NCBI RefSeq assembly: GCF_050613355.1
Contig: NZ_CP159618.1
Location: 311,581 to 343,580, forward strand
Origin: Plantibacter sp. RU18
GTDB taxonomy: Bacteria; Actinomycetota; Actinomycetes; Actinomycetales; Microbacteriaceae
Direction: 5' to 3'
Length of the DNA stretch: 32,000 nt
Positions 3,832 through 29,187 of this stretch are shown here, piece after piece. Under the pieces are notes generated by a model. That model was not told the DNA's origin and did not search any database. It was given only the letters and a program-made list of their open reading frames with translations. Position 1 is the first letter of the stretch; each line of letters starts with the position of its first letter. Position numbers and translations under genes: made by a program.

Positions 3832-5243
3832 ACGACGCACAGTTCGCGAGAGCACAGCGCTCCATCCCGGGTGGCGTGAACTCGCCCGTCCGAGCCTTCC
3901 GATCCGTCGGCGGCACACCCCGCTTCATGGTGTCGGCGAAGGGCGCGTACATCACCGACTCCGAGGGCTTCGAGTACGTCGACCTCGTGAGCGCGTGGGG
4001 GCCCGCGCTCCTCGGCCACGCCCACCCGCAGGTCGTCGAGGCCGTGCAGGCGGCCGCCGCCCGCGGTCTGTCGTTCGGTGCGTCCACGCCGGCCGAGACG
4101 GAATTGGCGGAGCTCGTCAAGGAACGCGTGCAGGCGTCCGGTGTCGCCCCCATCGAGAAGCTGCGCATGGTGTCCACAGGGACCGAAGCCACGATGACGG
4201 CCATCCGTCTGGCTCGCGGTGCCACCGGTCGCAGCCTGATCGTGAAGTTCGCCGGGCATTACCACGGGCACTCCGACGGTCTCCTCGCCGAGGCCGGTTC
4301 CGGCGTCGCGACGCTCGCGCTGCCGGGTTCGGCCGGTGTCACGCCCGAGACCGCCGCCCAGACGATCGTCGTCCCGTACAACGACCGGCAAGCGCTCCGA
4401 GAGGTCTTCGCCGAGCGCGGCGCGGACATCGCCGCGATCATCATGGAGGCGGCCTCCGCCAACATGGGTGTCGTCCCGCCGGCACCCGGCTTCAACGCGG
4501 CCGTCATCCGGCTCGCGCACGAGCACGGCGCGCTCGTCATCATGGACGAGGTCCTCACCGGGTTCCGTGTGTCCTCCGCCGGTTGGTGGGGGCTCGAGAA
4601 CCGCGGCCTCGCGGCGGTCGCGCCCGGGACGGTGCCCGAGCCGGGCGCAGAGGACTGGGAGGCCGGCAACCACGCCGTCGCGAACCCGACGGGCGCGATC
4701 AGCATCCCGATCGGCGTGTATCAGCCCGACCTCTTCACCTTCGGCAAGGTCATCGGTGGCGGCATGCCACTCGCAGCGCTCGGCGGTCGGGCCGAACTCA
4801 TGGACCTCCTGGCGCCGCTCGGCCCGGTATACCAGGCAGGAACGCTGTCGGGGAACCCCGTCGCGCTCGCCGCCGGCATCGAGACCCTCCGCCTCGCCGA
4901 CCAGGACGTCTATCGGAAGGTCGACGCCGCAGCCGCCATCGTCTCGGAGGCGACGTCCGGTGCGCTCACGGAGGCGGGTGTCGCGCACACCGTGCAGCGC
5001 GCAGGCAACCTGTTCTCCTTCGCGTTCACCGAGACCGCACCGACCGACTACGCGAGCGTGCTCCGTCAGGACGCCTTCCGGTACCCGGCGTTCTTCCACC
5101 GCATGCTCGACGCCGGGGTGTCCTTGCCGCCGAGCGTGTACGAGGCGTGGTTCGTCTCGGCAGCACACGACGACGAGGCGATCTCCCGCATCGTCGACGC
5201 GTTGCCGGGTGCAGCGCGTGCCGCTGCTGCGGCTGTCCGCTAG
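3828..5243 (+). CDS. hemL: Glutamate-1-semialdehyde 2,1-aminomutase (carries an unusual internal insertion)
   Basis: Motifs: [42 protein letters not shown]. At 471 aa it is longer than the usual ~430 aa because of an insert near nt 4596-4724. Confidence 0.95.
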
Positions 5244-5374
5244 GAGTTCGCCAGACGTTCCAGCAATCGTCAGCGCGCGAGCACGGCTCGCATCAGCCTG
5301 TGAACAATCGATGCGTTACCGCTTTGTGAACTTCCGGCAACGCGAACGTCGGTGCACCTTGGCAGACTAGAGAC

Positions 5375-5722
5375 ATGGCCTCCTTGCGTCTGCACCCCGA
5401 CCGACTGGAGATCGAGCTGTCCGCCTCCGAGAAGGCGCTGTCTCTCCGGAAGAGCAACGTCGTCGTCCCGCGGTCGAGCATCCGTTCTGCCACCATCACC
5501 GACGACCCGTGGATCTGGGTCCGGGGCATCCGCGCCCCTGGCACGGCGATCCCGTTGACGCTGGCGATCGGCCAGTGGAAGTTCCACGGCGGCAAGGACT
5601 TCCTCGTCGTGAAGGGCACGAAGCCGTCCGTCGTGATCGACCTCGAAGACACGGACTACTCGCGGCTCATCATCACGACCCGCCGCGGCCCGGAACTCAT
5701 CGAAGCGCTCAAGCTGTCCTGA
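5375..5722 (+). CDS. Hypothetical 115-aa soluble protein (family not recognised)
   Basis: Clean ATG ORF with GC-rich third codon positions. No signal peptide and no clear Shine-Dalgarno sequence. I recognise no motif. Confidence 0.6.
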   Translation: MASLRLHPDRLEIELSASEKALSLRKSNVVVPRSSIRSATITDDPWIWVRGIRAPGTAIPLTLAIGQWKFHGGKDFLVVKGTKPSVVIDLEDTDYSRLIITTRRGPELIEALKLS

Positions 5723-5873
5723 GCTGCGGTGGTTGTCGGGGGCGAGCGCGAAGTCGTAGCTGGTCAAGGCGATTTGCATTTGTTTGACTCGAATAGGGTA
5801 CAAAACGGCATGTGACGGGTATTCTGGGGCCGCTCGACTGGAGCGCTTCCGTCTGCTCGAAAGGACCACCGTC

Positions 5874-6275
5874 ATGACGACTCCTCCTCCCGGTGACTAC
5901 CCCGGCCAGCCGCCGCAGGCACCACAGCCGCCGCAGCAGCCGTACAGCGCGGCTCCGGCGTACTCGGGTGGTGCTGCTGCGTCCGGCGACGCGACCGTCG
6001 GCAAGACCCTCGGGATCGTCGGCCTGATCCTCGCATTCGTCGCGACGCCGATCGGTCTCATCCTGAGCATCGTCGCGCTCGTGCAGTCGAAGGGCGCGGG
6101 CGTGAAGAACACCCCCGCGAAGGTCGGTCTCATCCTGTCGATCATCTTCATCGTGCTCGCGATCATCATCACGATCGTTGCGATCTCGATCGGTGCGGCC
6201 GCCTTCAACGAGGCTTGCGCATCGCTCGGCAGCGGTGTGCACACCGACGGCGCGACCACCATCACCTGCCCGTAG
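5874..6275 (+). CDS. DUF4190-like small membrane protein with Pro/Gln-rich N-terminus
   Basis: ATG 5874 follows AAAGGA. The N-terminus reads PPPGDYPGQPPQAPQPPQQPY. Two hydrophobic helices follow (GKTLGIVGLILAFVATPIGLILSIVALVQSK, then VGLILSIIFIVLAIIITIVAISIG), as is typical of DUF4190. Confidence 0.7.
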   Translation: MTTPPPGDYPGQPPQAPQPPQQPYSAAPAYSGGAAASGDATVGKTLGIVGLILAFVATPIGLILSIVALVQSKGAGVKNTPAKVGLILSIIFIVLAIIITIVAISIGAAAFNEACASLGSGVHTDGATTITCP

Positions 6276-6290
6276 TCTCCTGGCCCGGCT

Positions 6291-6316
6291 GGGATTGGGG
6301 AGTTCTCCCCATCCCA
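6291..6316 (+). terminator. Weak hairpin after the first DUF4190 gene
   Basis: TGGGGA-GTTC-TCCCCA (6296-6311) with partly pairing flanks, followed by ATTTC. Confidence 0.35.
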
Positions 6317-6385
6317 TTTCAGTCGGATAACCCACTACTGTTGGCTCGCGTCCCTGACGCAACCACCATCCCGAGAGGAACCATC

Positions 6386-6673
6386 ATGACCAACGCTCCC
6401 CAGTACCAGTCCGGCCAGCAGCCTGCCGCCCTTCCCGCCGACTACCCGGGCAAGACGCTCGGCCTCGTCGGCCTCATCCTCGCGATCGTCGTGCCGCTCG
6501 TCGGCCTGATCCTGAGCATCGTCGCCCAGAACCAGTCGAAGGCTGCCGGTTACCCGAACCAGCTCGCGAAGATCGGTGTCATCATCGGCGCGATCCTCCT
6601 CGTGCTGGGCATCATCGGCTCGATCCTGTACTTCGTCACCGTCGGCTCGATGATGTCGACCGCCGGTTACTAG
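6386..6673 (+). CDS. DUF4190-like small membrane protein (paralogue of 5874..6275)
   Basis: ATG 6386 follows GAGAGGA. It shares GKTLGLVGLILAIVVPLVGLILSIVAQNQSK with the upstream gene and has two transmembrane helices. Confidence 0.7.
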   Translation: MTNAPQYQSGQQPAALPADYPGKTLGLVGLILAIVVPLVGLILSIVAQNQSKAAGYPNQLAKIGVIIGAILLVLGIIGSILYFVTVGSMMSTAGY

Positions 6674-6689
6674 GACTCAGGAGTCCGCT

Positions 6690-9908: not shown

Positions 9909-10862
9909 CTACAGGCCGAGCGAGGCCAGGGAGTCGCGCACTGCGGTGGCGGAGTCGGCGAACTGCTGCTCTTCGCGAGGCGACATCGCGACGTCGAGCA
10001 CGCTCCGGATGCCTGTGCGGTCGACGATGCTCGGGACCGACAGTGCGACACCGCTCACGCCGTGGTACCCGTCGAGGACCGTACTGACGGGGAGGATCGC
10101 GTGCTCGTCACCGAGGATGGCCTCGACGATGCGGGCGCCCGAGAGGCCGATCGCGTAGTTGGTCGCGCCCTTGCCCTCGATGACGCGATACGCGGCGGTG
10201 CGCACGTCCTGCGCGATCTCGTCCAGCTGCAGCTCGGTGAAGTGCGAACCGTCGGGCAGTTCCCAATCGAGGATCGGTACCGGGCCGATGGTCGCCTGGG
10301 ACCACAGCGGGAGTTCACTGTCGCCGTGCTCGCCGACGATGAGCGCGTGCACCGCCGAGGTCGCGACACCGGCACGTTCGGCCAGCAACCACCGCAGACG
10401 CGAGGTGTCGAGGACGGTGCCCGAGGAGAACACGCGCTCACTCGGCAGGCCGGTGATGCGCTGCGCGGCGACGGTGAGGACGTCGCAGGGGTTCGTGACG
10501 AGCATGTAGACGGCGTCGGGTGCCTGCTCGACGAGCTTCGGGAGGAGTTTCTCGAGGATGGCGATGTTCGTGCCCGCGAGCTCGAGTCGGGTCTGCCCGG
10601 GTTCCTGCTTCGCGCCAGCAGTGATGACGACGACGTCCGCGTCGGCGACCACGGAGATGTCGTCTCCGCCCGTGATGCTGCTGGAACCGGTGAACTGCGT
10701 GCCGTGCGCAAGGTCGAGCACCTCGGCCGATGCCCGCTTGCCGTCGATGTCGTAGAGCGCCACCCGGCGGGCGCTACCGCGGATGAGGGAGGCGTAGGCG
10801 AGGGACGAACCGACGCTTCCCGCCCCGATGATGGCCAGTTTCGACTTCGTGCGAGCACCCAT
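9909..10862 (-). CDS. ldh: L-lactate dehydrogenase
   Basis: Motifs: KLAIIGAGSVGSS, VVVITAGAKQEPGQTRLEL, NPCDVLT, VGEHGDSE. Confidence 0.93.
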   Translation of the reverse strand: MGARTKSKLAIIGAGSVGSSLAYASLIRGSARRVALYDIDGKRASAEVLDLAHGTQFTGSSSITGGDDISVVADADVVVITAGAKQEPGQTRLELAGTNIAILEKLLPKLVEQAPDAVYMLVTNPCDVLTVAAQRITGLPSERVFSSGTVLDTSRLRWLLAERAGVATSAVHALIVGEHGDSELPLWSQATIGPVPILDWELPDGSHFTELQLDEIAQDVRTAAYRVIEGKGATNYAIGLSGARIVEAILGDEHAILPVSTVLDGYHGVSGVALSVPSIVDRTGIRSVLDVAMSPREEQQFADSATAVRDSLASLGL

Positions 10863-20663: not shown

Positions 20664-21788
20664 ATGACCGAAGCGACCAGCGACATCAAGAAGGGTCTCG
20701 CCGGCGTCGTCGTCGACGTGACGAGCGTCTCGAAGGTGAACCCGGAGACCAACTCCCTGCTCTATCGCGGTTACCCGGTGCAAGAGCTCGCTGAGCACTG
20801 CACCTTCGAGCAGGTCGCATACCTGCTGTGGAACGGTGAGCTGCCGAGCGACGCCGAGCTGCGGGCGTTCGAGCAACTGGAGCGCGGCCAGCGGGTGCTC
20901 GATGACAACGTGAAGGCGGCGATCGATCTCCTGCCGACGACCTCGCACCCGATGGACGCCCTGCGCACCGCCGTGAGCGTCATCGGTGCGAACGATCCGA
21001 CCGCCGAGGACAACACACCTGAGGTCAACGCGGTGAAGGCGGCGAGCCTCTACGCGAAGCTGCCGGCGATCGTCGCCTACGACCAGCGGCGTCGGCACGG
21101 CCTCGAGCTCGTCCCGCCGCGCGACGACCTCGGCTACAGTGCGAACTTCCTGTACATGACCTTCGCCGAGGAGGCCGATCCGGTCGTCGTCGACGCCTTC
21201 GACGTGTCGATGATCCTGTACGCGGAGCACTCGTTCAACGCCTCGACCTTCACGGCTCGGGTCATCACCTCGACGCTGAGCGATCTGTATTCGGCCGTTG
21301 TCGGCGGCATCGGCGCGCTCAAGGGTGCGCTGCACGGCGGGGCGAACGAGGCGGTCATGCACGTCTTCGATGAGATCGGCACGGCGGACAAGGCGAACGC
21401 ATGGCTCGATGCTGCGCTCGCCGAGAAGCGAAAGATCATGGGCTTCGGCCACCGGGTGTACAAGAACGGCGACTCCCGCGTGCCGACGATGTTCGCGTCG
21501 CTCGAGAAGCTTGCGGAGCACTACGACAAGCCGGAGATCCTCGAGTTGTACACCACGCTCGAGGCCGACATGGTGGCGCGGAAGAACATCAAACCGAACC
21601 TCGACTACCCGTCGGGCCCCGCGTACAACCTGATCGGTTTCGACACGGCGACCTTCACGCCGTTGTTCGTTGCGTCCAGGGTCGTCGGCTGGACGGCGCA
21701 CATCGCTGAGCAGCTCGCGTCCAACGCGCTCATCCGTCCGCTGTCCGAGTACGTCGGTCCTGATGAGCGGCACGTGCCCATCAGCTGA
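20664..21788 (+). CDS. prpC: 2-methylcitrate synthase (citrate synthase family)
   Basis: ATG 20664 follows AAAGGAG. Motifs: LLYRGYPVQEL, ILYAEHSFNASTF, GALKGALHGGANE, GFGHRVYKNGDSR. Confidence 0.93.
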   Translation: MTEATSDIKKGLAGVVVDVTSVSKVNPETNSLLYRGYPVQELAEHCTFEQVAYLLWNGELPSDAELRAFEQLERGQRVLDDNVKAAIDLLPTTSHPMDALRTAVSVIGANDPTAEDNTPEVNAVKAASLYAKLPAIVAYDQRRRHGLELVPPRDDLGYSANFLYMTFAEEADPVVVDAFDVSMILYAEHSFNASTFTARVITSTLSDLYSAVVGGIGALKGALHGGANEAVMHVFDEIGTADKANAWLDAALAEKRKIMGFGHRVYKNGDSRVPTMFASLEKLAEHYDKPEILELYTTLEADMVARKNIKPNLDYPSGPAYNLIGFDTATFTPLFVASRVVGWTAHIAEQLASNALIRPLSEYVGPDERHVPIS

Positions 21789-21813
21789 CCGACGCGCCTC
21801 CACGCTACCCTCT

Positions 21814-21856
21814 CGGCGGCCGTCCACCACGCGGTGGGCGGCCGCCGTGGTGTTTT
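21814..21856 (+). terminator. Rho-independent terminator of the prp operon
   Basis: A 15-bp stem (CGGCGGCCGTCCACC pairs with GGTGGGCGGCCGCCG, one G-U), a 4-nt loop ACGC, then TGGTGTTTT. Confidence 0.75.
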
Positions 21857-21908
21857 CCGGGGCCACAGCCGTGCGCCGAGATGTCAACTGGTATTTATGA
21901 TGATGATT

Positions 21909-21921
21909 TGATATGTTAGAT
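21909..21921 (+). promoter_or_regulatory. Extended -10-like element TGATATGTT inside a shared 13-mer TGATATGTTAGAT
   Basis: It lies in an AT-rich island (21880-21925) in GC-rich DNA. TGn plus TATGTT fits TANNNT. A 12/13 identical copy occurs at 26828-26840. Confidence 0.4.
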
Positions 21922-22038
21922 TCCGGCGCGATCACGACGTCGGCTCGAGCAGTTCCGGCCGATCGGCCAACTCCCCTCCCTATGGCGACTCACCCGACAC
22001 CCGAGTGCGCCCTCCCACTGAGAAAGGCAGCTTCCCCT

Positions 22039-24285
22039 ATGAAGCTCAGAAAAACCCTGTCGGCGTTCGGCTTGATCGCCGTCGCCGCGTCCACCCTCGC
22101 GACCGGCCCGTCCGCGTTCGCCTCGGTCGACGATTCCGCGGCGCAGTCCGCGGCTCAGGCCACCGCAGCGAACGCCCCCGGATCCGCGGTGTTCACCGTT
22201 GCCGGCAAATTCTGGTCGTTGGACAACTCCAACGCCGGCTCCCCGCAAGCGTCGGCATATGACACGCCCGAGCAGGCCGAAGCTGCATCGGCTCAGCTGA
22301 CGTTGCCGCCCATCGGACAGCCCGGCCCGATCGTCAGCGGGAGCAATACGGGGGTCTGCCTCACGCCGAGCCCTGTCGGTGACAAGAACCGTCGCTGGTT
22401 CTCCTTCGCCGCTTGCTCGGGTGCTGGATCCCAGGACTTCGAGCTCGTTGAGCACGGCGGCGGGGTCGTTGTGAAAAACGTCGGTGCGTACCTCACTGTC
22501 CTGAAGTCAAACTGGTCAATCAACTACCTTGCAGGCGGAAACCTGGCTGAGGCCGCACAGGTCTCGGGCACGGCTGTCACTCCGGCGTTCGGCCTGACGA
22601 CGCCCGCTGTGGGGGCGGTCATTCGTGATGCTCAGCCGACCTTCTCCGGTGTGGGTGCGCCCGGGGCCACGATCGAGATCGAGGATGCTGACGGGCGCCT
22701 CGTCGCTACGACCACGGTCGGCGACGACAAGGCATGGTCTGTCCAGGCTGACGAGGCGTTCGCTGAGGGCACGCACACGGGCACGATCCGTCAGATCACC
22801 GCCGCTAATGTGGTGTCCACCACGCCGTACGAGTTCGAGTACGCGATGGTGAAGGACGTCGCTGTGACATCGCCGGAGATCGGCGGGTCGGTCGACGTAC
22901 CTCGTCCGGTGGTTTCCGGTACCGGTCAGGCTGGAGGCGAGATCGAGCTGGTGTTCGCTGAGCCGAACGAACGCACCTACAAGACGACGGTCGGCGAGGA
23001 CGGCACGTGGTCGATCGCGCCGACGGTGTCGCTGAAGAAGGGGCCGGTCGAAGGCCAGGTCACCCAGACCTTCGAGGGCGGTGTGAAGCAGTCCGCATTC
23101 AACTTCACCTATGGGACCGTCAAGCCCGTCACGAACGTGTCGCTCGAGACCCCGGCCGCTGGCGCAACACTGAAGGATGCCCGCCCGGTGTTCTCCGGTG
23201 CTGGTGAGAACGGTGCGACGATCGAGGTCGTCGAGGGTGGCAACATCATCGCGACGGCTACGGTCTCCGGCGGAACCTGGACCACGACGGCTGCCGCCGA
23301 CGTGGCTCTGGGCGCGCACGCTGGTTCGGTGAACCAGAAGATCAACGGTGCGCAGCAGTCATCCGTGCCGTTCTCCTTCACTCGTGAGGCTGACGTCGAG
23401 CAGCAGCCGCTCGTCGTCGCGAGCCCTGCCGTTGGTGGGTCGATTGTGACTGACGCGTCCGGCACGGTTGCTCCCGTGTTCTCCGGAACCGCGACGCCTG
23501 GTGCCGATGTCAAAGTCGTCACTGCTTGGGGCCACACGGTCGGCACGGTGAAGGCCGATGATGCCGGCGCATGGACGCTGACCTGGAACAAGACGCTGCT
23601 GCCGAACACCTACGCCGGCGGCGCGACCATCCAGTCGATCGACGGCAAGGTCATCGACCGCGTCGGCTACAACTTCACCGTGACGAACTCGCTCTCGCAG
23701 GAGCCGCTCGTGGTGACTTCGCCTGCTGTCGGCGGCACGATCGTGACCGACGCGTCCGGCACGGTTGCGCCGGTGTTCTCCGGAACAGCGACGCCTGGTG
23801 CCGACGTCAAGGTCGTCACCGCTTGGGGCGACACGGTCGGCACGGTCAAGGCTGACGCCACGACCGGCGCCTGGTCCCTCACCTGGAACAAGTCGCTGAA
23901 GCCTGCCACCTACGCCGGCGGAAACACCATCCAGAGCGTGAACAACGTCGAGATCGACCGCACAGGCTACCGCTTCACCGTTCAGGCTGCAGCCTCCAAG
24001 GTGGTGCTCACGAGCCCCGCGATCGGCGGAGTCATCTCCACCGGCGGCGCGACCAGCATCTCCCCGGTCTTCACCGGCACCGGTGACGAGGGTGCTCGGA
24101 TCGAGATCGTCGGCGCTTGGGGCACGGACCTCGGCAAGGGCGTCGTCAAGAACGGTGTCTGGGAGATCACCTGGGCGAACCAGTACTCGCCCGGGACCTA
24201 CTCCGGTGGCCTCGTGAAGCAGTACCTGGCCGATGGGACCGCGCTCCACTCCACGGTCCCGTACAACTTCACCATCACGAAGTAG
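22039..24285 (+). CDS. Secreted 748-aa protein: signal peptide, Cys-pair N-terminal domain, six Ig-like (Big-type) repeats, no anchor
   Basis: ATG 22039 follows GAGAAAGG, inside ORF 21913..24285. The signal peptide is MKLRKTLSAFGLIAVAASTLATGPSAFA. Six modules carry PxFSG(T/V/A)GxxGAx(I/V)x(I/V)...GxW...YxFx(Y/V). The protein ends NFTITK without LPXTG or a hydrophobic tail. Confidence 0.85.
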   Translation: MKLRKTLSAFGLIAVAASTLATGPSAFASVDDSAAQSAAQATAANAPGSAVFTVAGKFWSLDNSNAGSPQASAYDTPEQAEAASAQLTLPPIGQPGPIVSGSNTGVCLTPSPVGDKNRRWFSFAACSGAGSQDFELVEHGGGVVVKNVGAYLTVLKSNWSINYLAGGNLAEAAQVSGTAVTPAFGLTTPAVGAVIRDAQPTFSGVGAPGATIEIEDADGRLVATTTVGDDKAWSVQADEAFAEGTHTGTIRQITAANVVSTTPYEFEYAMVKDVAVTSPEIGGSVDVPRPVVSGTGQAGGEIELVFAEPNERTYKTTVGEDGTWSIAPTVSLKKGPVEGQVTQTFEGGVKQSAFNFTYGTVKPVTNVSLETPAAGATLKDARPVFSGAGENGATIEVVEGGNIIATATVSGGTWTTTAAADVALGAHAGSVNQKINGAQQSSVPFSFTREADVEQQPLVVASPAVGGSIVTDASGTVAPVFSGTATPGADVKVVTAWGHTVGTVKADDAGAWTLTWNKTLLPNTYAGGATIQSIDGKVIDRVGYNFTVTNSLSQEPLVVTSPAVGGTIVTDASGTVAPVFSGTATPGADVKVVTAWGDTVGTVKADATTGAWSLTWNKSLKPATYAGGNTIQSVNNVEIDRTGYRFTVQAAASKVVLTSPAIGGVISTGGATSISPVFTGTGDEGARIEIVGAWGTDLGKGVVKNGVWEITWANQYSPGTYSGGLVKQYLADGTALHSTVPYNFTITK
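23401..23994 (+). repeat. Intragenic tandem duplication: Ig modules 4 and 5 (2 x 297 bp)
   Basis: The QQPLVV unit at 23401 and the QEPLVV unit at 23698 give an exact 297-bp period. I counted 11 mismatches over a 114-nt stretch compared by eye (about 90% identity). Confidence 0.85.
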
Positions 24286-24314
24286 TCACCACCGCAGTCG
24301 ACAACTGAACATGC

Positions 24315-24348
24315 ATCGGCCCGGCCTCCCCTCGGAGGCCGGGCCGAT
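24315..24348 (+). terminator. Perfect 15-bp hairpin after the first Ig-repeat gene
   Basis: ATCGGCCCGGCCTCC-CCTC-GGAGGCCGGGCCGAT. There is no U tract (I-shaped terminator type). Confidence 0.65.
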
Positions 24349-24376
24349 CGTCATGACCAGCACGCTCACACACACG

Positions 24377-24385
24377 TGATATTTT
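24377..24385 (+). promoter_or_regulatory. Extended -10-like element TGATATTTT
   Basis: It lies in an AT-rich island (24375-24416) upstream of the second Ig-repeat gene and has the same TGATAT start as the two other module promoters. Confidence 0.35.
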
Positions 24386-24501
24386 TGTCGGTCGTACGAT
24401 CCATTTCAGATTGACATGTCGGGCCATGGGTCAGGCATTCTCCGGTGGTGTCTCGGGGGATCGATGAGGCACCGTCACCCCAGGAAAGGAAGCTTCGAAC
24501 G

Positions 24502-26727
24502 ATGAAGCTCACACACCCTCTGGCGATGCTCGGTGTCATCGTCATCGCCGCGGCTTCACTCGTGACGTCGGCTGAGGCGTCGGCGTTACCGGATGCTCAA
24601 CGCGCACCTGGATCGCTGGTCTTCCAGCTCGATGGCAAGTTCTACTCCACCGCGAACATCATGCCCACCAACACCGACTACGCCGAGTACCGCGAGTACG
24701 CGACGCTGGCAGAAGCGTCCACCAACTCCGTCGACTGGGTGCTTCCGGCGCTCGGAGCAACGGAAAGCATCCCCTCGCCGTTCGACGCCACGAAGTGCCT
24801 CACGGTCACGAACGGCGTGTCCCTGAGCTTCCAGCGTTGCGGAGGCGGCCGAAGCCAACAGTTCACGCTCGAGCCGACCGATGCCGGTGTCGTCCTCATC
24901 GGACCAGACGACGTCGCGTTCGGACCGACGCACTGGATCCGCGACAGCTTCCAGCTCCGTGCCGCAGTCGATCAGGCGGCGGCGGGGACCGTCACCGGAA
25001 CGGCCCTCGAGTCGCCGTTCGAGCTCGGGAGCCCGGCGATCGGCGCGACGGTTCGCGAGGGGCGGCCCGTGTTCTCGGGCGTCGGCCTGCCGGGCTCGGT
25101 CGTCGAGGTGGAGGACGAGGCCGGGCACCTGGTCGCTTCGACTGTCGTCGTCGCCGACGCCACCTGGGCGGTCCGAGCCGAACGAGCCTTCGTCGAGGGC
25201 TCCCATGCCGGCGCGGTCCGGCAGGTCTCGTCCGACGACACGGTCACCACCGTGCCGTACGCCTTCACCTACGCGTTGGTGCGGGGCGTCGACGTGACAT
25301 CGCCGGCAGCCGGGAGCTCCGTCAACATCCCGCGCCCGGTGATCTCGGGCACCGGAGAGCCGGGGGCATCGATCGAGCTCCTCTTCGCCGGTGTGAACGA
25401 GCGGAGCTATACGACCACGGTCACACCCGCCGGCGCCTGGCGGGTCTCCCCGACCGTCTCGTTGCAGCGAGGGCTCGTCGAGGGGCAGGTCACGCAGTCG
25501 TTCGAAGGCGAGATCGCCCAGGTCGGCTTCTCCTTCACCTATGGCGTGGTCGCGCCCGTCGCACCGGTCACGCTCGTCGCCCCTGGCATCGGTTCGACCG
25601 TCACCGATGCCCGTCCGTCATTCTCCGGGACGGGCGAGGATGGCGCGACGATCGAGGTCGTCGAAGACGGGTCGCTCATCGCTCGCGGAACCGTCGCCGA
25701 CGGGCGGTGGACCGCGAAGCCGAGTGCCGACCTCGCGGCCGGCAAGCACGAGGGTCGCGTCGTGCAGCTGATCGCGGGCGTCGAGCAATCCTCGACGCCG
25801 TTCTCCTTCACAAGGCGGCTCCCCGACGAGACCAGGCAGCTCGTCGTCGAGCGGCCTGCCCAGGGTGGCGAGTATGTGGTCGACGGCAAGGGAACGGCCA
25901 CGCCGCTCTTCTCCGGAACGGCCACTCCGGGAGCGGACATCCAGGTTCGGACGGCCTGGGGAGTCAACGCCGGGTCGGCGCGGGCCGATGTGGACGGGCG
26001 CTGGAGCATCACGTGGAACAAGGTGCTCGCGCCCGGTCGGTATGTGGGCGGATCGACGATCCAGTCCATCGGCGGGCGGCGCATCGACCAGGTGAGCTAC
26101 AGCTTCTCGGTCGTGCACGGGACGCAGATCCGCCGGCTCTCCGTGACCGCTCCGGCGATCGGTGGTGAGATCGGCGCCGACGACTCCGGTCTCGCACGAC
26201 CGGTCTTCACCGGCATGGGCACTCCGAACGCCGACATCAGGATCGTCACGGCTTGGGGCAACCTGGTCGGCTCGACGCAGGCTGATGCGACGGGTGCCTG
26301 GTCCATCACGTGGAGCAAGGCGCTGCAGCCGGGCGCCTATCGCGGCGGGAACACGATCCAGACGGTCAACAGCGTCGAGATCGATCGTGTCGGCTATTCG
26401 TTCGCCGTCCGCGCCGAATTGCTCGGTGTCCGGCTGGTCAGCCCGGCGCTCGGGGGTGTCGTGTACACGGGGGCTGCTGAAACGATCTCTCCGACGTTCA
26501 CCGGCACGGGCACCGAGGGTGCCCGCATCGAGATCGTCGGAGCATGGGGCACTCAACTCGGTCGCGGCGTCGTTCGCAACGGCGCCTGGCAGATCACCTG
26601 GGCCAACAGGTACCGCCCGGGAACGTATTCCGGGGGTCTCGTGAAGCAGTACCTCGAGGGCGAGACGGTGCTCGATTCCACCGCGCCTTACCGGTTCACC
26701 ATCCTCGCCGGCCTGCCCGCCGAGTAG
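24502..26727 (+). CDS. Secreted 741-aa paralogue: signal peptide, Cys-pair N-terminal domain, six Ig-like repeats, no anchor
   Basis: ATG 24502 follows GGAAAGGA, inside ORF 24445..26727. The signal peptide is MKLTHPLAMLGVIVIAAASLVTSAEASA. It is collinear with 22039..24285 module by module and ends FTILAGLPAE. Confidence 0.85.
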   Translation: MKLTHPLAMLGVIVIAAASLVTSAEASALPDAQRAPGSLVFQLDGKFYSTANIMPTNTDYAEYREYATLAEASTNSVDWVLPALGATESIPSPFDATKCLTVTNGVSLSFQRCGGGRSQQFTLEPTDAGVVLIGPDDVAFGPTHWIRDSFQLRAAVDQAAAGTVTGTALESPFELGSPAIGATVREGRPVFSGVGLPGSVVEVEDEAGHLVASTVVVADATWAVRAERAFVEGSHAGAVRQVSSDDTVTTVPYAFTYALVRGVDVTSPAAGSSVNIPRPVISGTGEPGASIELLFAGVNERSYTTTVTPAGAWRVSPTVSLQRGLVEGQVTQSFEGEIAQVGFSFTYGVVAPVAPVTLVAPGIGSTVTDARPSFSGTGEDGATIEVVEDGSLIARGTVADGRWTAKPSADLAAGKHEGRVVQLIAGVEQSSTPFSFTRRLPDETRQLVVERPAQGGEYVVDGKGTATPLFSGTATPGADIQVRTAWGVNAGSARADVDGRWSITWNKVLAPGRYVGGSTIQSIGGRRIDQVSYSFSVVHGTQIRRLSVTAPAIGGEIGADDSGLARPVFTGMGTPNADIRIVTAWGNLVGSTQADATGAWSITWSKALQPGAYRGGNTIQTVNSVEIDRVGYSFAVRAELLGVRLVSPALGGVVYTGAAETISPTFTGTGTEGARIEIVGAWGTQLGRGVVRNGAWQITWANRYRPGTYSGGLVKQYLEGETVLDSTAPYRFTILAGLPAE

Positions 26728-26827
26728 GTGGACCTCGGTAGCGGGTGGTGCCGTCGGGGACGGGTCCGCCCGGATCCCTGGGAGTCGACTGACAACCGTC
26801 GGCCACAACAACAGCCCATACTAGATC

Positions 26828-26840
26828 TGATATGCTAGAT
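26828..26840 (+). promoter_or_regulatory. Extended -10-like element TGATATGCT inside the shared 13-mer TGATATGCTAGAT
   Basis: It lies in an AT-rich island (26815-26860). It matches 21909-21921 at 12 of 13 positions, or 15 of 17 if extended to GATYTGATATGYTAGAT. Confidence 0.4.
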
Positions 26841-26906
26841 GTATTGAGTCACTCTGACCATATCGGCTCACTCCCGACCCACTCCGACCCGAGAAACGGA
26901 ACCATC

Positions 26907-27335
26907 ATGAAGAAGCTCTCTGTCATCGCAGCTGGCGGCATCCTGCTGCTCACCCTCGCTGGTTGCTCCGCCCCGGTGTCCAACAGCACCTCCACCCCAG
27001 ACCCCGAAGCGACGTCGTCGCAGGGCGCCACCGACCCCGACTACACCTTCCCCGAAGTCGACGGTGAGTGCGTCGACGGCACCGCTCTCGTCTCGGCAGA
27101 CGCGTCGAGCTCGATCATCACCATCGGCGACTGCGAGAACGTCGTCATCGAGGCGTCCAACAGCAAGGTCATCGTGGGCGCCGTCACCAACCTCACGGTC
27201 AACTCGTCGATCTCCCTCGTCGTGGCCGCGTCCGTCGAGCACATCACGTTCGGTGGCGAGGGCAACCGGGTCGTCACTTCGGGTGAACCCGTCGTCGAGG
27301 GTGACCTCGAGAGCAACACCGTCAACGCCGAGTAG
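26907..27335 (+). CDS. DUF3060-like lipoprotein (142 aa)
   Basis: ATG 26907 is inside ORF 26832..27335. The signal peptide and lipobox read MKKLSVIAAGGILLLTLAGC. A Ser/Thr/Pro linker follows, then short rungs (IITIGDCENVVIEASNSKVIVGAVTNLTVNSSISLVV) as in DUF3060. Confidence 0.8.
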   Translation: MKKLSVIAAGGILLLTLAGCSAPVSNSTSTPDPEATSSQGATDPDYTFPEVDGECVDGTALVSADASSSIITIGDCENVVIEASNSKVIVGAVTNLTVNSSISLVVAASVEHITFGGEGNRVVTSGEPVVEGDLESNTVNAE

Positions 27336-27369
27336 CCGCAGGCGCACCGCAAGCCTGCTCGTCCCCACA

Positions 27370-27405
27370 ACACCGGGTCGGTCGTCCCCACGACCGGCCC
27401 GGTGT
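27370..27405 (+). terminator. Hairpin closing the three-gene module
   Basis: ACACCGGGTCGGTCGT-CCCC-ACGACCGGCCCGGTGT: a 16-bp stem with one mismatch and no U tract. Confidence 0.55.
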
Positions 27406-27513
27406 CGCACTGTCGGTGCATGTCGACAAGCATCGAGGAGTAGGTGTTCCCAGGGGTTGTCGCGGTCGGACAACGTGTGAGCTCGGGTGGCGCCGCAGCG
27501 CTAGCATCCGAGG

Positions 27514-28074
27514 ATGCACCTGATCTTCCGCACGTTCCTCGTCATGATCCGTGCGCGGCGTCGACGCCGTCGTGGTGACACGCTCGGCTTCTGGGACGTC
27601 GGCCGGATCCGTCTGCGCGTGCTCCCCACCGATCTCGATGTCCTCCGCCACATGAACAACGGCGTGTACCTGTCGATCTTCGACCTCGGTCGCTTCGACC
27701 TGCTCGTGCGGAACGGGCTCTGGGCTGAGTTCGGCAGACGCGGCTGGTACCCGGTGGTGTCGAGCGAGACGATCACCTTCCGAAAGTCGCTCAACCCGTG
27801 GCAACGGTTCTCCGTCGAGACCCGGGTGATCGGCTACGACGAGAAGGGGGTGTTCATCGAGCACCGAGCCGTCGTCGGAGGCGAGATCTACACCCAGGCC
27901 ATCGTGCGGGGTCGCTTCCTGAAGCGCGCCGGCGGGACTGTCTCGATGACCGAACTGCTCGAGGTCACGGGGCTCCCGCCCCAGGGTGTGAGCCTCGCCG
28001 ACTGGCATGTCCAGTGGGCTCGCGACGTGGCTCTTCCGCCCACGAAAGCCCCCGCGCCGAGTGAGTGGAACTGA
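27514..28074 (+). CDS. Hotdog-fold acyl-CoA thioesterase family protein
   Basis: 186 aa. The stretch LRVLPTDLDVLRHMNNGVYLSIFDLGR... is typical of the thioesterase-like (4HBT-related) superfamily. Confidence 0.8.
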   Translation: MHLIFRTFLVMIRARRRRRRGDTLGFWDVGRIRLRVLPTDLDVLRHMNNGVYLSIFDLGRFDLLVRNGLWAEFGRRGWYPVVSSETITFRKSLNPWQRFSVETRVIGYDEKGVFIEHRAVVGGEIYTQAIVRGRFLKRAGGTVSMTELLEVTGLPPQGVSLADWHVQWARDVALPPTKAPAPSEWN

Positions 28075-28146: not shown

Positions 28147-29187
28147 ATGGTGACTGTCATGTCAGCGATCGAGAGCCTCCCCGTGCGCCGCCGAACACCG
28201 GCGCTCGCGCCGTCCGGCACTCGCCCGACCGCGGCCGGGCCGGTCGCCGTGCGTGAACCGGTCGCCGAGCTTGTCGAGGCGCCCACCCACACCGTCTACC
28301 GCCCGGCCGGTCCGCTCGACGTGCACGCCACGCTCGCTCTCCTGTCCCGTGGTGGGGACGGTCCGTGCTTCCGCCGCACGCCCGGTGGTGTGTGGCTCAC
28401 CATGCGGACCCCGCAGGGCGGCGCGTCGCTCTTCGTCTCCACGATGCGGGGCGGTGAGGTCGAGGCCACTGCCTGGGGCAGCGGCGCGGAGTGGGCGATC
28501 AGCGGCATCCCCGAACTGCTGGGCGCGGGCGACGACTGGTCGCAGCTCGAGGTGTCAGGCAGTCCGCTACTCACGGAGGTGCTCCGTCGCAACCCCGGCG
28601 TGAGGCTCAGTCGCAACCGACTCGTCTTCGAGATGCTCGTGCCCTCGGTTCTCGAGCAGAAGGTCACGGCGCTCGAAGCCTGGCGGGCATGGCGCCTGCT
28701 GGTGCGTCACCACGGCGATCCAGCGCCCGGCCTCGCGCCGGAGGGCATGGTCGTTGCACCTGCACCCGATACGTGGCGCATGGTGCCGAGTTGGGAATGG
28801 CACGAAGCCGGCGTGGGGCCGCAGCGTTCCGAGACGGTCGTGCGGTCGTCACGGCTCGCGAGCGCGATCGAACGCACGATCGACGACGCCCCGGACGATG
28901 CATCGCGGCGCCTCCAGAGCCTTCCGGGAATCGGCGTCTGGACGGCCGCCGAGATCACGCTTCGTGCGCACGGCGATGCCGACGCGGTGAGCGTGGGCGA
29001 CTACCATCTCGCGGCCACAGTCGGGCAGGCGCTCACCGGTTCACCCGTCGACGACGACGGCATGCTCGAACTCCTCTCCCCGTGGGCCGGCCAGCGGCAG
29101 CGGGTGCTGCGCTTGATCGGGCTGAGCGGCATCCGCAAACCGCGGCGCGGTCCGAAGATCACCATCCAGGATCACCGCCGTCACTGA
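28147..29187 (+). CDS. HhH-GPD DNA glycosylase (AlkA / 3-methyladenine glycosylase II-like)
   Basis: Helix-hairpin-helix LQSLPGIGVWTAAEI, then the catalytic-Asp context VSVGDYHL. The start is uncertain (ATG 28147 or 28159), and the N-terminal ~45 codons include a REP-like core. Confidence 0.8.
   Translation: MVTVMSAIESLPVRRRTPALAPSGTRPTAAGPVAVREPVAELVEAPTHTVYRPAGPLDVHATLALLSRGGDGPCFRRTPGGVWLTMRTPQGGASLFVSTMRGGEVEATAWGSGAEWAISGIPELLGAGDDWSQLEVSGSPLLTEVLRRNPGVRLSRNRLVFEMLVPSVLEQKVTALEAWRAWRLLVRHHGDPAPGLAPEGMVVAPAPDTWRMVPSWEWHEAGVGPQRSETVVRSSRLASAIERTIDDAPDDASRRLQSLPGIGVWTAAEITLRAHGDADAVSVGDYHLAATVGQALTGSPVDDDGMLELLSPWAGQRQRVLRLIGLSGIRKPRRGPKITIQDHRRH

Follow-up and report, generated by a model that had tools for sequence, protein, structure and literature searches.

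The main routes by which Gram-positive bacteria retain proteins at their surface are sortase-mediated attachment through LPXTG, a few non-covalent wall-binding modules and the protein's own lipid or transmembrane anchor. MSCRAMM-type sortase adhesins combine a Sec signal, a distal N-terminal binding domain, an Ig-like stalk and a cell-proximal C-terminus, and the same layout is predicted for two proteins encoded within a 32-kb stretch of a Plantibacter genome (family Microbacteriaceae). This stretch is termed the window here, and position 1 is its first letter. The genes for these two proteins, A (22039-24285) and B (24502-26727), are followed on the same (+) strand by gene C (26907-27335), which encodes a small predicted lipoprotein. 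All three open reading frames (ORFs) were present at these coordinates, and the start codons at 22039, 24502 and 26907 fit database proteins that are 748, 741 and 142 amino acids (aa) long.

Other described systems resemble parts of this locus. RTX/Bap-type giant adhesins (MpIBP, LapA, SiiE and BapA), like A and B, join extender repeats to a ligand domain and contain Ca_tandemer-type modules. These giants are secreted by Gram-negative bacteria through type 1 systems; their repeats number in the tens, and they have retention modules at the N-terminus and RTX signals at the C-terminus. The CBM13 domain of Streptomyces lividans xylanase 10A (1knl) is, like the N-terminal head of A and B, a beta-trefoil, and one subdomain of the head shares its C-L...C-x-G-x3-Q-x-[FW] pattern and disulfide. 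DUF3060 (PF11259) is represented, as is C, by small actinobacterial secreted proteins or lipoproteins with short beta-rung repeats and a predicted solenoid. The Staphylococcus aureus 'SERAMs' Eap and Emp, as well as RbmC and Bap1 of Vibrio cholerae, are secreted, have no covalent anchor and act at the surface or in the matrix, with RbmC and Bap1 being composed of lectin domains and repeat modules; to our knowledge, none of these proteins has a dedicated lipoprotein partner. A literature search turned up no characterised system in which a DUF3060-type lipoprotein is dedicated to Ig stalks with a beta-trefoil head.

Analysis of the window and of related loci indicated that A, B and C form a well-delimited, lineage-restricted module, built from known kinds of parts, in which a putative partner relationship is genomically well supported. 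The explanation that we favour, while putting it at somewhat less than an even chance, is a two-component envelope display wherein the conserved tail of A and B would be held by C, leaving the stalk to reach through the wall and expose a variable head. The tethering role of C in this display is suggested by its gene neighbourhood.

Proteins A and B are collinear over their full length, with 52% identity. Protein A has a Sec signal peptide (aa 1-28, ending AFA before S), an Ala/Gln-rich linker, a beta-trefoil head (aa ~48-185; 22180-22593) and six Ig modules (M1 to M6). Protein B has a similar layout, with a signal peptide ending ASA before L and a head at aa ~36-174 (24607-25023). Each protein contains two Cys residues, both located in the head (Cys107 and Cys126 in A; Cys99 and Cys113 in B). 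Pfam searches detected six Big_13/Big_6 stretches per protein (E of 2e-24 for A and 3e-31 for B), and the scores for Big_13 (PF19077) and Big_6 (PF17936), which were 86.5 and 79.6 bits for A and 108.3 and 93.3 bits for B, place both proteins above the gathering cutoffs of 27 and 27.6. The NCBIfam model Ca_tandemer (NF033510) was also matched above its cutoff of 50, with 65.6 and 64.4 bits. A regular expression for the module signature proposed in the initial annotation had exactly six sites in each protein. The modules are 87 to 99 aa in length, module i of A being nearest to module i of B throughout, and fall into two classes, M1 to M3 (22594-23403 in A; 25024-25833 in B) and the Trp-rich M4 to M6 (23404-24282 in A; 25834-26724 in B), the latter having an extra invariant Trp (AWG, W..W). 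Within gene A, M4 and M5 (23400-23558 and 23697-23855) are 85% identical as DNA and 76% as protein, which indicates a recent intragenic duplication or gene conversion; the corresponding modules of B are far less alike (48% protein identity).

A and B are probably exported via Sec, as judged from their signal peptides, and no means of retention in cis was detected. LPXTG was absent by regular expression, no Gram_pos_anchor match was obtained in the Pfam scan, and neither protein has a lipobox or a hydrophobic 19-mer beyond the signal peptide; the C-termini read ...YNFTITK and ...FTILAGLPAE. The wall-binding families SLH, LysM, GW, CW_binding and PG_binding gave no Pfam match at E<=1, and searches of PDB sequences with the tail modules found no relative among solved structures and no carbohydrate-binding module (CBM). 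There was no Pfam match to RTX/HemolysinCabind, a weak match to SiiEA (23 bits against a cutoff of 425), and a score of ~60 bits for Blp2 (NF040520), which has an equivalog threshold of 750, so that membership of that family is not indicated. Pfam, regular expression and alignment therefore bore out the initial annotation in its description of A and B as collinear paralogues with signal peptides, a Cys pair, six Ig modules and no anchor. Several other assignments were weighed and discarded. A type 1 secretion adhesin is contradicted by the missing RTX match and the N-terminal Sec signal, a sortase substrate by the lack of LPXTG, C-terminal helix and basic tail, and an S-layer/SLH protein by the lack of an SLH match; no toxin domain was seen that would suit a polymorphic toxin, nor any domain in support of a defence island.

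The N-terminal domain had been left without a family in the initial annotation. AlphaFold, Foldseek and profile searches assign it to the ricin-type beta-trefoils, of which it is predicted to be a divergent member. A profile built from an alignment of seven of these N-terminal domains matched among PDB sequences the CBM13 of Streptomyces xylanase 10A (1knl; E of 3.8e-5), and all other matches were also ricin-type, comprising further xylanases, the CBM13 of an arabinofuranosidase, ebulin, seed lectins and the lectin domains of GalNAc-transferases. The aligned segment is a single (central) ricin subdomain, C-L-x(n)-C-x-G-x3-Q-x-F, that fits each of the three CBM13 repeats in turn. The AlphaFold2 model of the head of A (pLDDT of 83.7, pTM of 0.78) retrieved in Foldseek a top 50 consisting essentially entirely of beta-trefoils (TM of 0.55 to 0.63, E of 2e-3 to 2e-2), with Symfoil, IL-1beta, botulinum HA33, the CBM13-bearing lacto-N-biosidase StrLNBase and the CysR domain of the mannose receptor among the top matches. 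An exhaustive hidden Markov model search with the head among 1.84 billion representatives gave 417 matches at E<=1e-3. Of those matched over many stretches, P0043, P0045 and P0046 proved to be genuine members of Ricin_B_lectin, namely a GH16, a metallopeptidase and a galactose-oxidase-like protein, and a fourth, P0044, contains nothing but a sub-threshold Ig-like match in Pfam. Single matches covering the whole head were few and were Big_6/Big_13 proteins of Plantibacter, Frigoribacterium, Microbacterium, Leucobacter and Frondihabitans, together with a Curtobacterium protein having no Ig module. A word-indexed homologue search with the head profile returned no matches, and neither Ricin_B_lectin nor RicinB_lectin_2 of Pfam matched A or B at E<=1. 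In the heads, other residues take the place of the sugar-binding Asp of 'CLD' (giving CLT, CLQ, CLE or others), and one QxW-like repeat (QxF/QxW) is recognisable out of three canonical ones. Lectin activity is plausible for these heads.

Protein C starts with MKK, followed by a hydrophobic core and the lipobox MKKLSVIAAGGILLLTLAG ahead of the Cys (LAG before C20), the signal being encoded at 26907-26966. The lipobox pattern [LVI][ASTVI][GAS]C was matched and its Cys was invariant in all 15 homologues, in agreement with the initial reading of C as a lipoprotein with LTLAGC; lipidation of C is accordingly a prediction from these residues. A disordered Ser/Thr/Pro linker of ~28 aa (aa 21-48) leads to a domain (aa 49-142; 27051-27332) predicted to be a small beta-solenoid with Cys55 and Cys76. 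In the 15-member family alignment, C20, C55 and C76 are invariant, the motif spacing is like that of short beta-rungs, and the Frigoribacterium members have exactly one ~19-residue rung fewer. The AlphaFold2 model is all-beta with pLDDT >90 at residues 50-142, as opposed to <50 at residues 1-42. No significant Foldseek match was found for this model, the best being the C-terminal beta-helix of CAP (E of 0.46), and the nearest shapes, all below significance, were right-handed beta-helices (the CAP C-terminal domain, K5 lyase and bactofilin). The DUF3060 likeness noted initially held at the level of the family: C itself scored 18.1 bits (E of 0.0022), below the cutoff of 23.1, while 6 of the 15 members matched at E<=0.01 (best E of 1.2e-7), and the family is probably related to DUF3060. 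A profile of the lipoprotein family gave nothing meaningful against PDB sequences, and no functional paper on DUF3060 or on Plantibacter Ig-like proteins was found in the literature. The family is rare, with 10 clusters among 5.8 billion, all of them from Plantibacter.

Pairing of a lipoprotein homologue with anchor-less head+Ig genes, on the same strand and directly adjacent, was detected in about five genomic contexts in Plantibacter and Frigoribacterium. At the prpC locus of Plantibacter the pairing occurs in seven genomes. The site 3' of prpDBC in P. flavus (L001), VKM Ac-2880 (L002), Leaf171 (L004), ME-Dv--P-122b, P. auratus and P. elymi is occupied by a variable set of head+Ig genes with one or two lipoprotein genes, each of which is on the same strand as, and directly beside, a head+Ig gene; the same prpC-type arrangements were seen on metagenome contigs. 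This island encodes 743-aa and 486-aa Ig proteins and a Big-GH18 enzyme in P. flavus, and in Leaf171 it comprises two lipoprotein-Ig pairs together with the decayed remains of an Ig gene that has been deleted. In sister species it often runs past the thioesterase gene to an extra 654-aa Ig-repeat gene, before a conserved 330-aa protein. The other contexts are independent of prpC. In Plantibacter YIM 135347 (L005) the order is Big655, lipoprotein, Big655 and Big645 (numbers are protein lengths) within an exopolysaccharide/wall-glycopolymer cluster; a metagenome contig has Big1074 and then the lipoprotein beside the dnaK operon; Frigoribacterium faeni has Big725, Big634, lipoprotein, Big627, Big826 and lipoprotein; and Frigoribacterium CFBP9030 has Big786, lipoprotein, Big1335 and Big1210. 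All of the Ig proteins in these contexts have a beta-trefoil-type head and no anchor. Hence, when co-conservation was checked, as the initial annotation had proposed, the lipoprotein accompanied head+Ig genes in every Plantibacter locus examined and in YIM 135347, two Frigoribacterium genomes and metagenome contigs. Two head+Ig homologues, those of Leifsonia aquatica (L006, 755 aa) and Microbacterium CGR2 (L014, 287 aa), have their own C-terminal hydrophobic helix and Arg-rich tail, and neither has a lipoprotein neighbour. The absence of the lipoprotein beside transmembrane-anchored homologues fits a tether role for C, and the position of their helix indicates the polarity of the proteins, with the tail being cell-proximal and the head distal. 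The initial suggestion that C tethers A and B is thus in keeping with the gene linkage and with these two homologues, but the role itself continues to be read from neighbourhood.

Three of these loci exhibited further features. The remnant in Leaf171 (L004 9774-10000) consists of a promoter island, a leader and a decayed 5' end of an Ig gene before the first lipoprotein gene, with ATGAAGCTC...CTGTCGGCCTTCGGG having turned into ACGAAACTC...CTGTCGGCCTCGGGG; this scar was left by a deletion in which an entire Ig gene was lost and its promoter became joined to the lipoprotein gene. In YIM 135347, the two 655-aa genes flanking the lipoprotein gene (L005 5089-7081 and 7754-9746; spacing of 2665 nucleotides [nt]) encode 100% identical proteins and match exactly over their first 300 nt, including 25 nt upstream, due either to a very recent duplication or to an assembly artefact. 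The called 905-aa gene of VKM Ac-2880 (L002 6678-9896) is 5'-truncated, an upstream in-frame ATG with the family ribosome-binding site and an MKLKKTLSAFG signal peptide giving 1073 aa with a beta-trefoil head.

Conservation increased from head to tail. Between A and B, identity was 33% in the head, 49 to 60% in M1 to M5 and 71% in M6. Across species the heads were barely alignable, while the last two to three modules were 43 to 57% identical in every island Ig protein. P0002 and P0003, the 741-aa orthologues of B, were 74 to 91% identical to it in every region, with M3 being the weakest. A variable head with a constant tail is the pattern of a diversifying binding end and a conserved attachment end. 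The tail modules are also present on a secreted GH18 of P. flavus (L001 11701-13527), whose two N-terminal modules are 54% identical to M5-M6 of A and whose gene, preceded by an AT-rich island of its own, belongs to the prpC-locus island; this suggests that the tail may be a portable targeting module. The alleles of the window's island had discordant affinities: the lipoprotein and the tails were nearest to those of P. flavus (66% and 52 to 57%, respectively), whereas the 346-aa core protein encoded downstream was nearest to that of VKM Ac-2880 (85%, as compared to 76% for P. flavus). On these comparisons, an exchange of the island as a block by recombination is suggested.

In the proposed display, A and B would leave the cell via Sec and become oriented head out and tail in, each with its N-terminal beta-trefoil head, a stalk of six Ig-like modules and a tail formed by the last two to three Trp-rich modules. 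Membrane-lipidated C would carry its DUF3060-type beta-solenoid on the flexible ~28-residue linker, and the solenoid would dock the C-terminal tail modules of A, of B and possibly of other tail-bearing exoproteins, including GH18, thereby acting as a shared trans-acting membrane tether. Six modules would give a stalk of ~20-25 nm, an estimate derived from typical Ig-domain dimensions, and this could span the Gram-positive wall and present the rapidly diversifying head at the surface to a ligand, be it a glycan or another molecule. A broader proposal, that DUF3060-type solenoid lipoproteins are an unrecognised class of membrane docking receptors for sortase-independent, anchor-less Ig-stalk proteins and tail-bearing exoproteins such as GH18 in actinobacteria, and thus a new means of trans-anchoring for Gram-positive surface display, with hypervariable beta-trefoil heads swapped by recombination, seems doubtful to us.

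A number of observations weigh against the display. With a strong terminator lying between A and B and each gene predicted to have its own promoter, co-expression in fixed stoichiometry cannot be taken for granted, the linkage in Plantibacter is largely one inherited synteny block, so that truly independent contexts number ~4-5, and the transmembrane-anchored counter-examples are only two. A search of 751 sequences for a Rosetta-stone fusion joining the lipoprotein domain with an Ig protein found none. Head-only paralogues of Curtobacterium (L015) and a headless, anchor-less Leifsonia Ig protein (L016), located in a GH3/ROK/NagB/NagA cluster, have no lipoprotein gene in their 6-kb flanks. The missing canonical CLD Asp and the single QxW-like repeat also leave lectin activity unproven. 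Separate promoters, an intervening terminator and the origin of most Plantibacter cases from one ancestral locus would also suit an explanation in which inherited synteny in a variable island makes the lipoprotein and Ig genes mere neighbours, with no functional link. We disfavour this explanation as scarcely credible, since the genes are again adjacent in four or more further genomic contexts and in a second genus, the unit has been duplicated as a pair (L004 and L013) and the lipoprotein family is very rare.

A rather unlikely alternative is that A and B are released to serve as matrix proteins or agglutinins, in the manner of anchor-less adhesins or biofilm-matrix lectins, and bind either exopolysaccharide of the producing cell or glycans of plants or fungi, with C being linked to them not as a stalk anchor but, for example, as a cell-side matrix receptor, a folding or export helper or a sensor. 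The proteins are anchor-less, the module of YIM 135347 lies inside a cluster with Bac_transf, GT4, Wzz-kinase, LMWPc, flippase, pyruvyl transferase and LytR_cpsA_psr genes, that of L012 abuts a Wzy/GT cluster, and AT-rich motifs of the ATATTAGATG type, as found before A and C, also precede exopolysaccharide genes in L005. Release would not explain, however, why homologues anchored in cis by a transmembrane helix have no lipoprotein or why conservation is highest in the C-terminal modules, and core metabolic rather than exopolysaccharide genes surround the island both in the window and in most of the Plantibacter genomes. Retention could instead be due to the tail itself, if M4 to M6 were non-covalent binders of peptidoglycan, wall glycopolymer or chitin that hold A, B and GH18, leaving C as an accessory envelope protein with a role of its own. 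That these modules are a distinct class with an extra invariant Trp, are fused to a GH18 glycosidase and have distant homologues in GlcNAc/MurNAc clusters (NagA/NagB/GH3 in L016; NamZ/MurR in L014) speaks for this possibility, which we regard as distinctly unlikely because the tail contains no detected wall-binding family or CBM, the extra Trp could be core residues and the tight cross-genus linkage of the lipoprotein is left unexplained. Highly unlikely is a role in nutrient capture, whereby heads and stalks would keep polysaccharide close by and available to enzymes such as GH18, as a Gram-positive analogue of surface glycan-binding proteins: the CBM13-like head is of a type typical of actinobacterial glycoside hydrolases, the P. 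flavus island has a GH18 with shared tail modules, and sugar ABC transporters and nag genes adjoin in L014 and L016, but the window's island has no transporter or hydrolase, the canonical sugar-binding Asp is absent and GH18 was found in one locus only among those examined. The two-component display thus remains our preferred explanation, as it fits the cis-anchored homologues, the conserved tail and the linkage.

The features of the island, all on the plus strand, are as follows.

21814-21847, plus strand: intrinsic-terminator hairpin at the end of the prpDBC operon, bounding the island on the left (stem of 15 pairs, then a T-run; -39.4 kcal/mol, z of -4.8).
21878-21926, plus strand: AT-rich, promoter-like island upstream of A (<=34% GC), holding TGATATGTTAGAT, an extended -10-like TGnTANNNT.
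22039-24285, plus strand: gene A, 748 aa, predicted to be secreted and anchor-less (Big_13/Big_6 stretches, module map and head fold).
24310-24354, plus strand: strong GC hairpin, terminator-like, between A and B (-41.6 kcal/mol, z of -8.5; 0 of 200 shuffles fold as well).
24378-24421, plus strand: milder AT-rich stretch upstream of B, GTGATATTTTTG...GATTGACATG, read from the sequence and above the <=34% GC threshold.
24502-26727, plus strand: gene B, 741 aa, collinear paralogue of A (52% identity; Big_13 E of 3.2e-31).
26742-26772, plus strand: weak hairpin after B, unconvincing as a terminator (z of -1.9; 9 of 200 shuffles fold as well).
26816-26851, plus strand: AT-rich, promoter-like island upstream of C (<=34% GC) with TGATATGCTAGAT, a motif common to the island of A.
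26907-27335, plus strand: gene C, 142-aa predicted lipoprotein (15-member alignment and AlphaFold2 model).
27370-27405, plus strand: terminator-like hairpin after C, bounding the island on the right in this genome (stem of 16 pairs; -32.4 kcal/mol, z of -4.5).

These features indicated that A, B and C are three adjacent transcription units and not one operon. The initial annotation had described a three-gene module bounded by terminators, and both bounding hairpins are real, but the hairpin between A and B is the strongest of the island, exceeding both of them; this terminator, together with the separate promoter-like islands, argues that A-B-C is not a single terminator-bounded operon. Likewise, the claim that each gene sits behind an AT-rich island held for A and C, whose islands contain the only windows of <=34% GC in the whole 32 kb, but not fully for B, whose island is milder. 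Similar AT-rich islands precede the homologous genes in L001, L002, L004, L005 and L012, and they may function as promoters. A scan with the sigma-70 consensus found no promoters, and it is only by eye that the islands fit the actinobacterial extended -10 (TGnTANNNT). An Rfam scan of 21700-27600 at a permissive E gave chance-level matches alone and no known riboswitch or leader. A GAAAGG Shine-Dalgarno sequence precedes each of the three starts.

Short sequence words recur in these regions. TGATATGYTAGAT is present exactly upstream of A and C, and with two to three mismatches before three P. flavus island genes; it was rejected as an operator, being not significant in the window relative to shuffles (19/100) and absent from L002 and L004. 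Words resembling TGATAT(N2)TAGAT are common to the AT-rich islands (window 21909-21921 and 26828-26840; L001 5896-5908, 9939-9951 and 11587-11599; L005 2051-2081, 2090-2135 and 14086-14159) and could be an extended -10 promoter class or the site of a shared regulator, their occurrence in the window alone not being significant. The ATATTAGATG words before the exopolysaccharide genes of YIM 135347 are related to the motif of the A and C islands. The ribosome-binding region of the Ig-repeat genes consists of a conserved palindrome, GGAAGCTTCC, followed 6 to 8 nt later by ATGAAGCTC (window 22024-22047 and 24486-24510; L001 ~6003-6026, L002 ~6661-6686, L004 ~10647-10672 and L005 ~9984-10009), and AGCUUC is able to pair with GAAGCU at the start codon of these genes. 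The DNA of this palindrome is better conserved between the paralogues than are the signal peptide and head downstream, and the region may be a translational control element or may merely have been copied along with the gene duplication.

The flanks of the island are core metabolism, to which A, B and C are unrelated, as had been noted initially. Immediately upstream is prpD-prpB-prpC, the last ORF being Citrate_synt/prpC, with genes for haem synthesis, an ABC transporter and ldh farther upstream. Downstream are a 4HBT thioesterase, the conserved 346-aa protein and a FAD oxidoreductase. The 346-aa protein (28147-29187) is 76 to 85% conserved across Plantibacter species and delimits the variable island on its right side; it had no Pfam match at E<=0.01 and by eye contains a helix-hairpin-helix/GPD-like motif (LPGIGVWTAAE...VGDYHL). 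Elsewhere in the window, GC is lower at 5001-6500 (0.65 to 0.66, as compared to ~0.70), where two small ORFs with high third-position GC (5330-5722 and 5760-6275) match no Pfam family. In database comparisons, P0001 (A) and P0032 were 100% identity matches, P0001 being annotated as 'MAG TPA: Ig-like domain-containing protein [Plantibacter sp.]'. A metagenome scan for tail modules on other enzymes returned the same island types alone and no new fusions. The Curtobacterium paralogues mentioned above are five tandem genes of strain VKM Ac-2922 (L015 3921-9290) encoding proteins of 326 to 361 aa, 38 to 74% identical, that have the same head type and no Ig stalk, and end in an unrelated ~150-aa domain with no Pfam match.

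Proteins of the A, B and C types are restricted to plant- or phyllosphere-associated Microbacteriaceae (Plantibacter, Frigoribacterium and relatives). Fast-diverging heads with constant tails are what one would expect of molecules in contact with hosts, fungi, phages or neighbouring microbes, and this pattern, in plant-associated hosts, makes A and B reasonable candidates for leaf-surface attachment factors. Docking of anchor-less stalk proteins by a dedicated small lipoprotein, if true, would be a fourth route of retention in Gram-positive bacteria and would offer, for the first time, a hypothesis on what a DUF3060-type protein does; should the tether idea prove wrong, the family would be an ordinary lineage-specific one of secreted Ig-repeat proteins.

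Among the described systems, the SERAMs, RbmC and Bap1 exhibited no detected sequence relationship to A or B. A and B differ from the RTX/Bap giants in having an N-terminal Sec signal, six repeats and a Gram-positive host, and their Ca_tandemer-type repeats may bind Ca2+. Their head, unlike CBM13, sits on an Ig stalk and not on an enzyme, and departs from CBM13 in its lack of a Pfam match, of three QxW repeats and of the Asp. In comparison with the MSCRAMMs, A and B lack LPXTG, the C-terminal hydrophobic helix and the charged tail, their head is a predicted beta-trefoil rather than a DEv-IgG or thioester domain, and anchoring is proposed to occur in trans via a lipoprotein. That lipoprotein scores below the gathering cutoff of DUF3060, from which its subfamily is set apart by its invariant pair of Cys residues and by being strictly associated with head+Ig genes.

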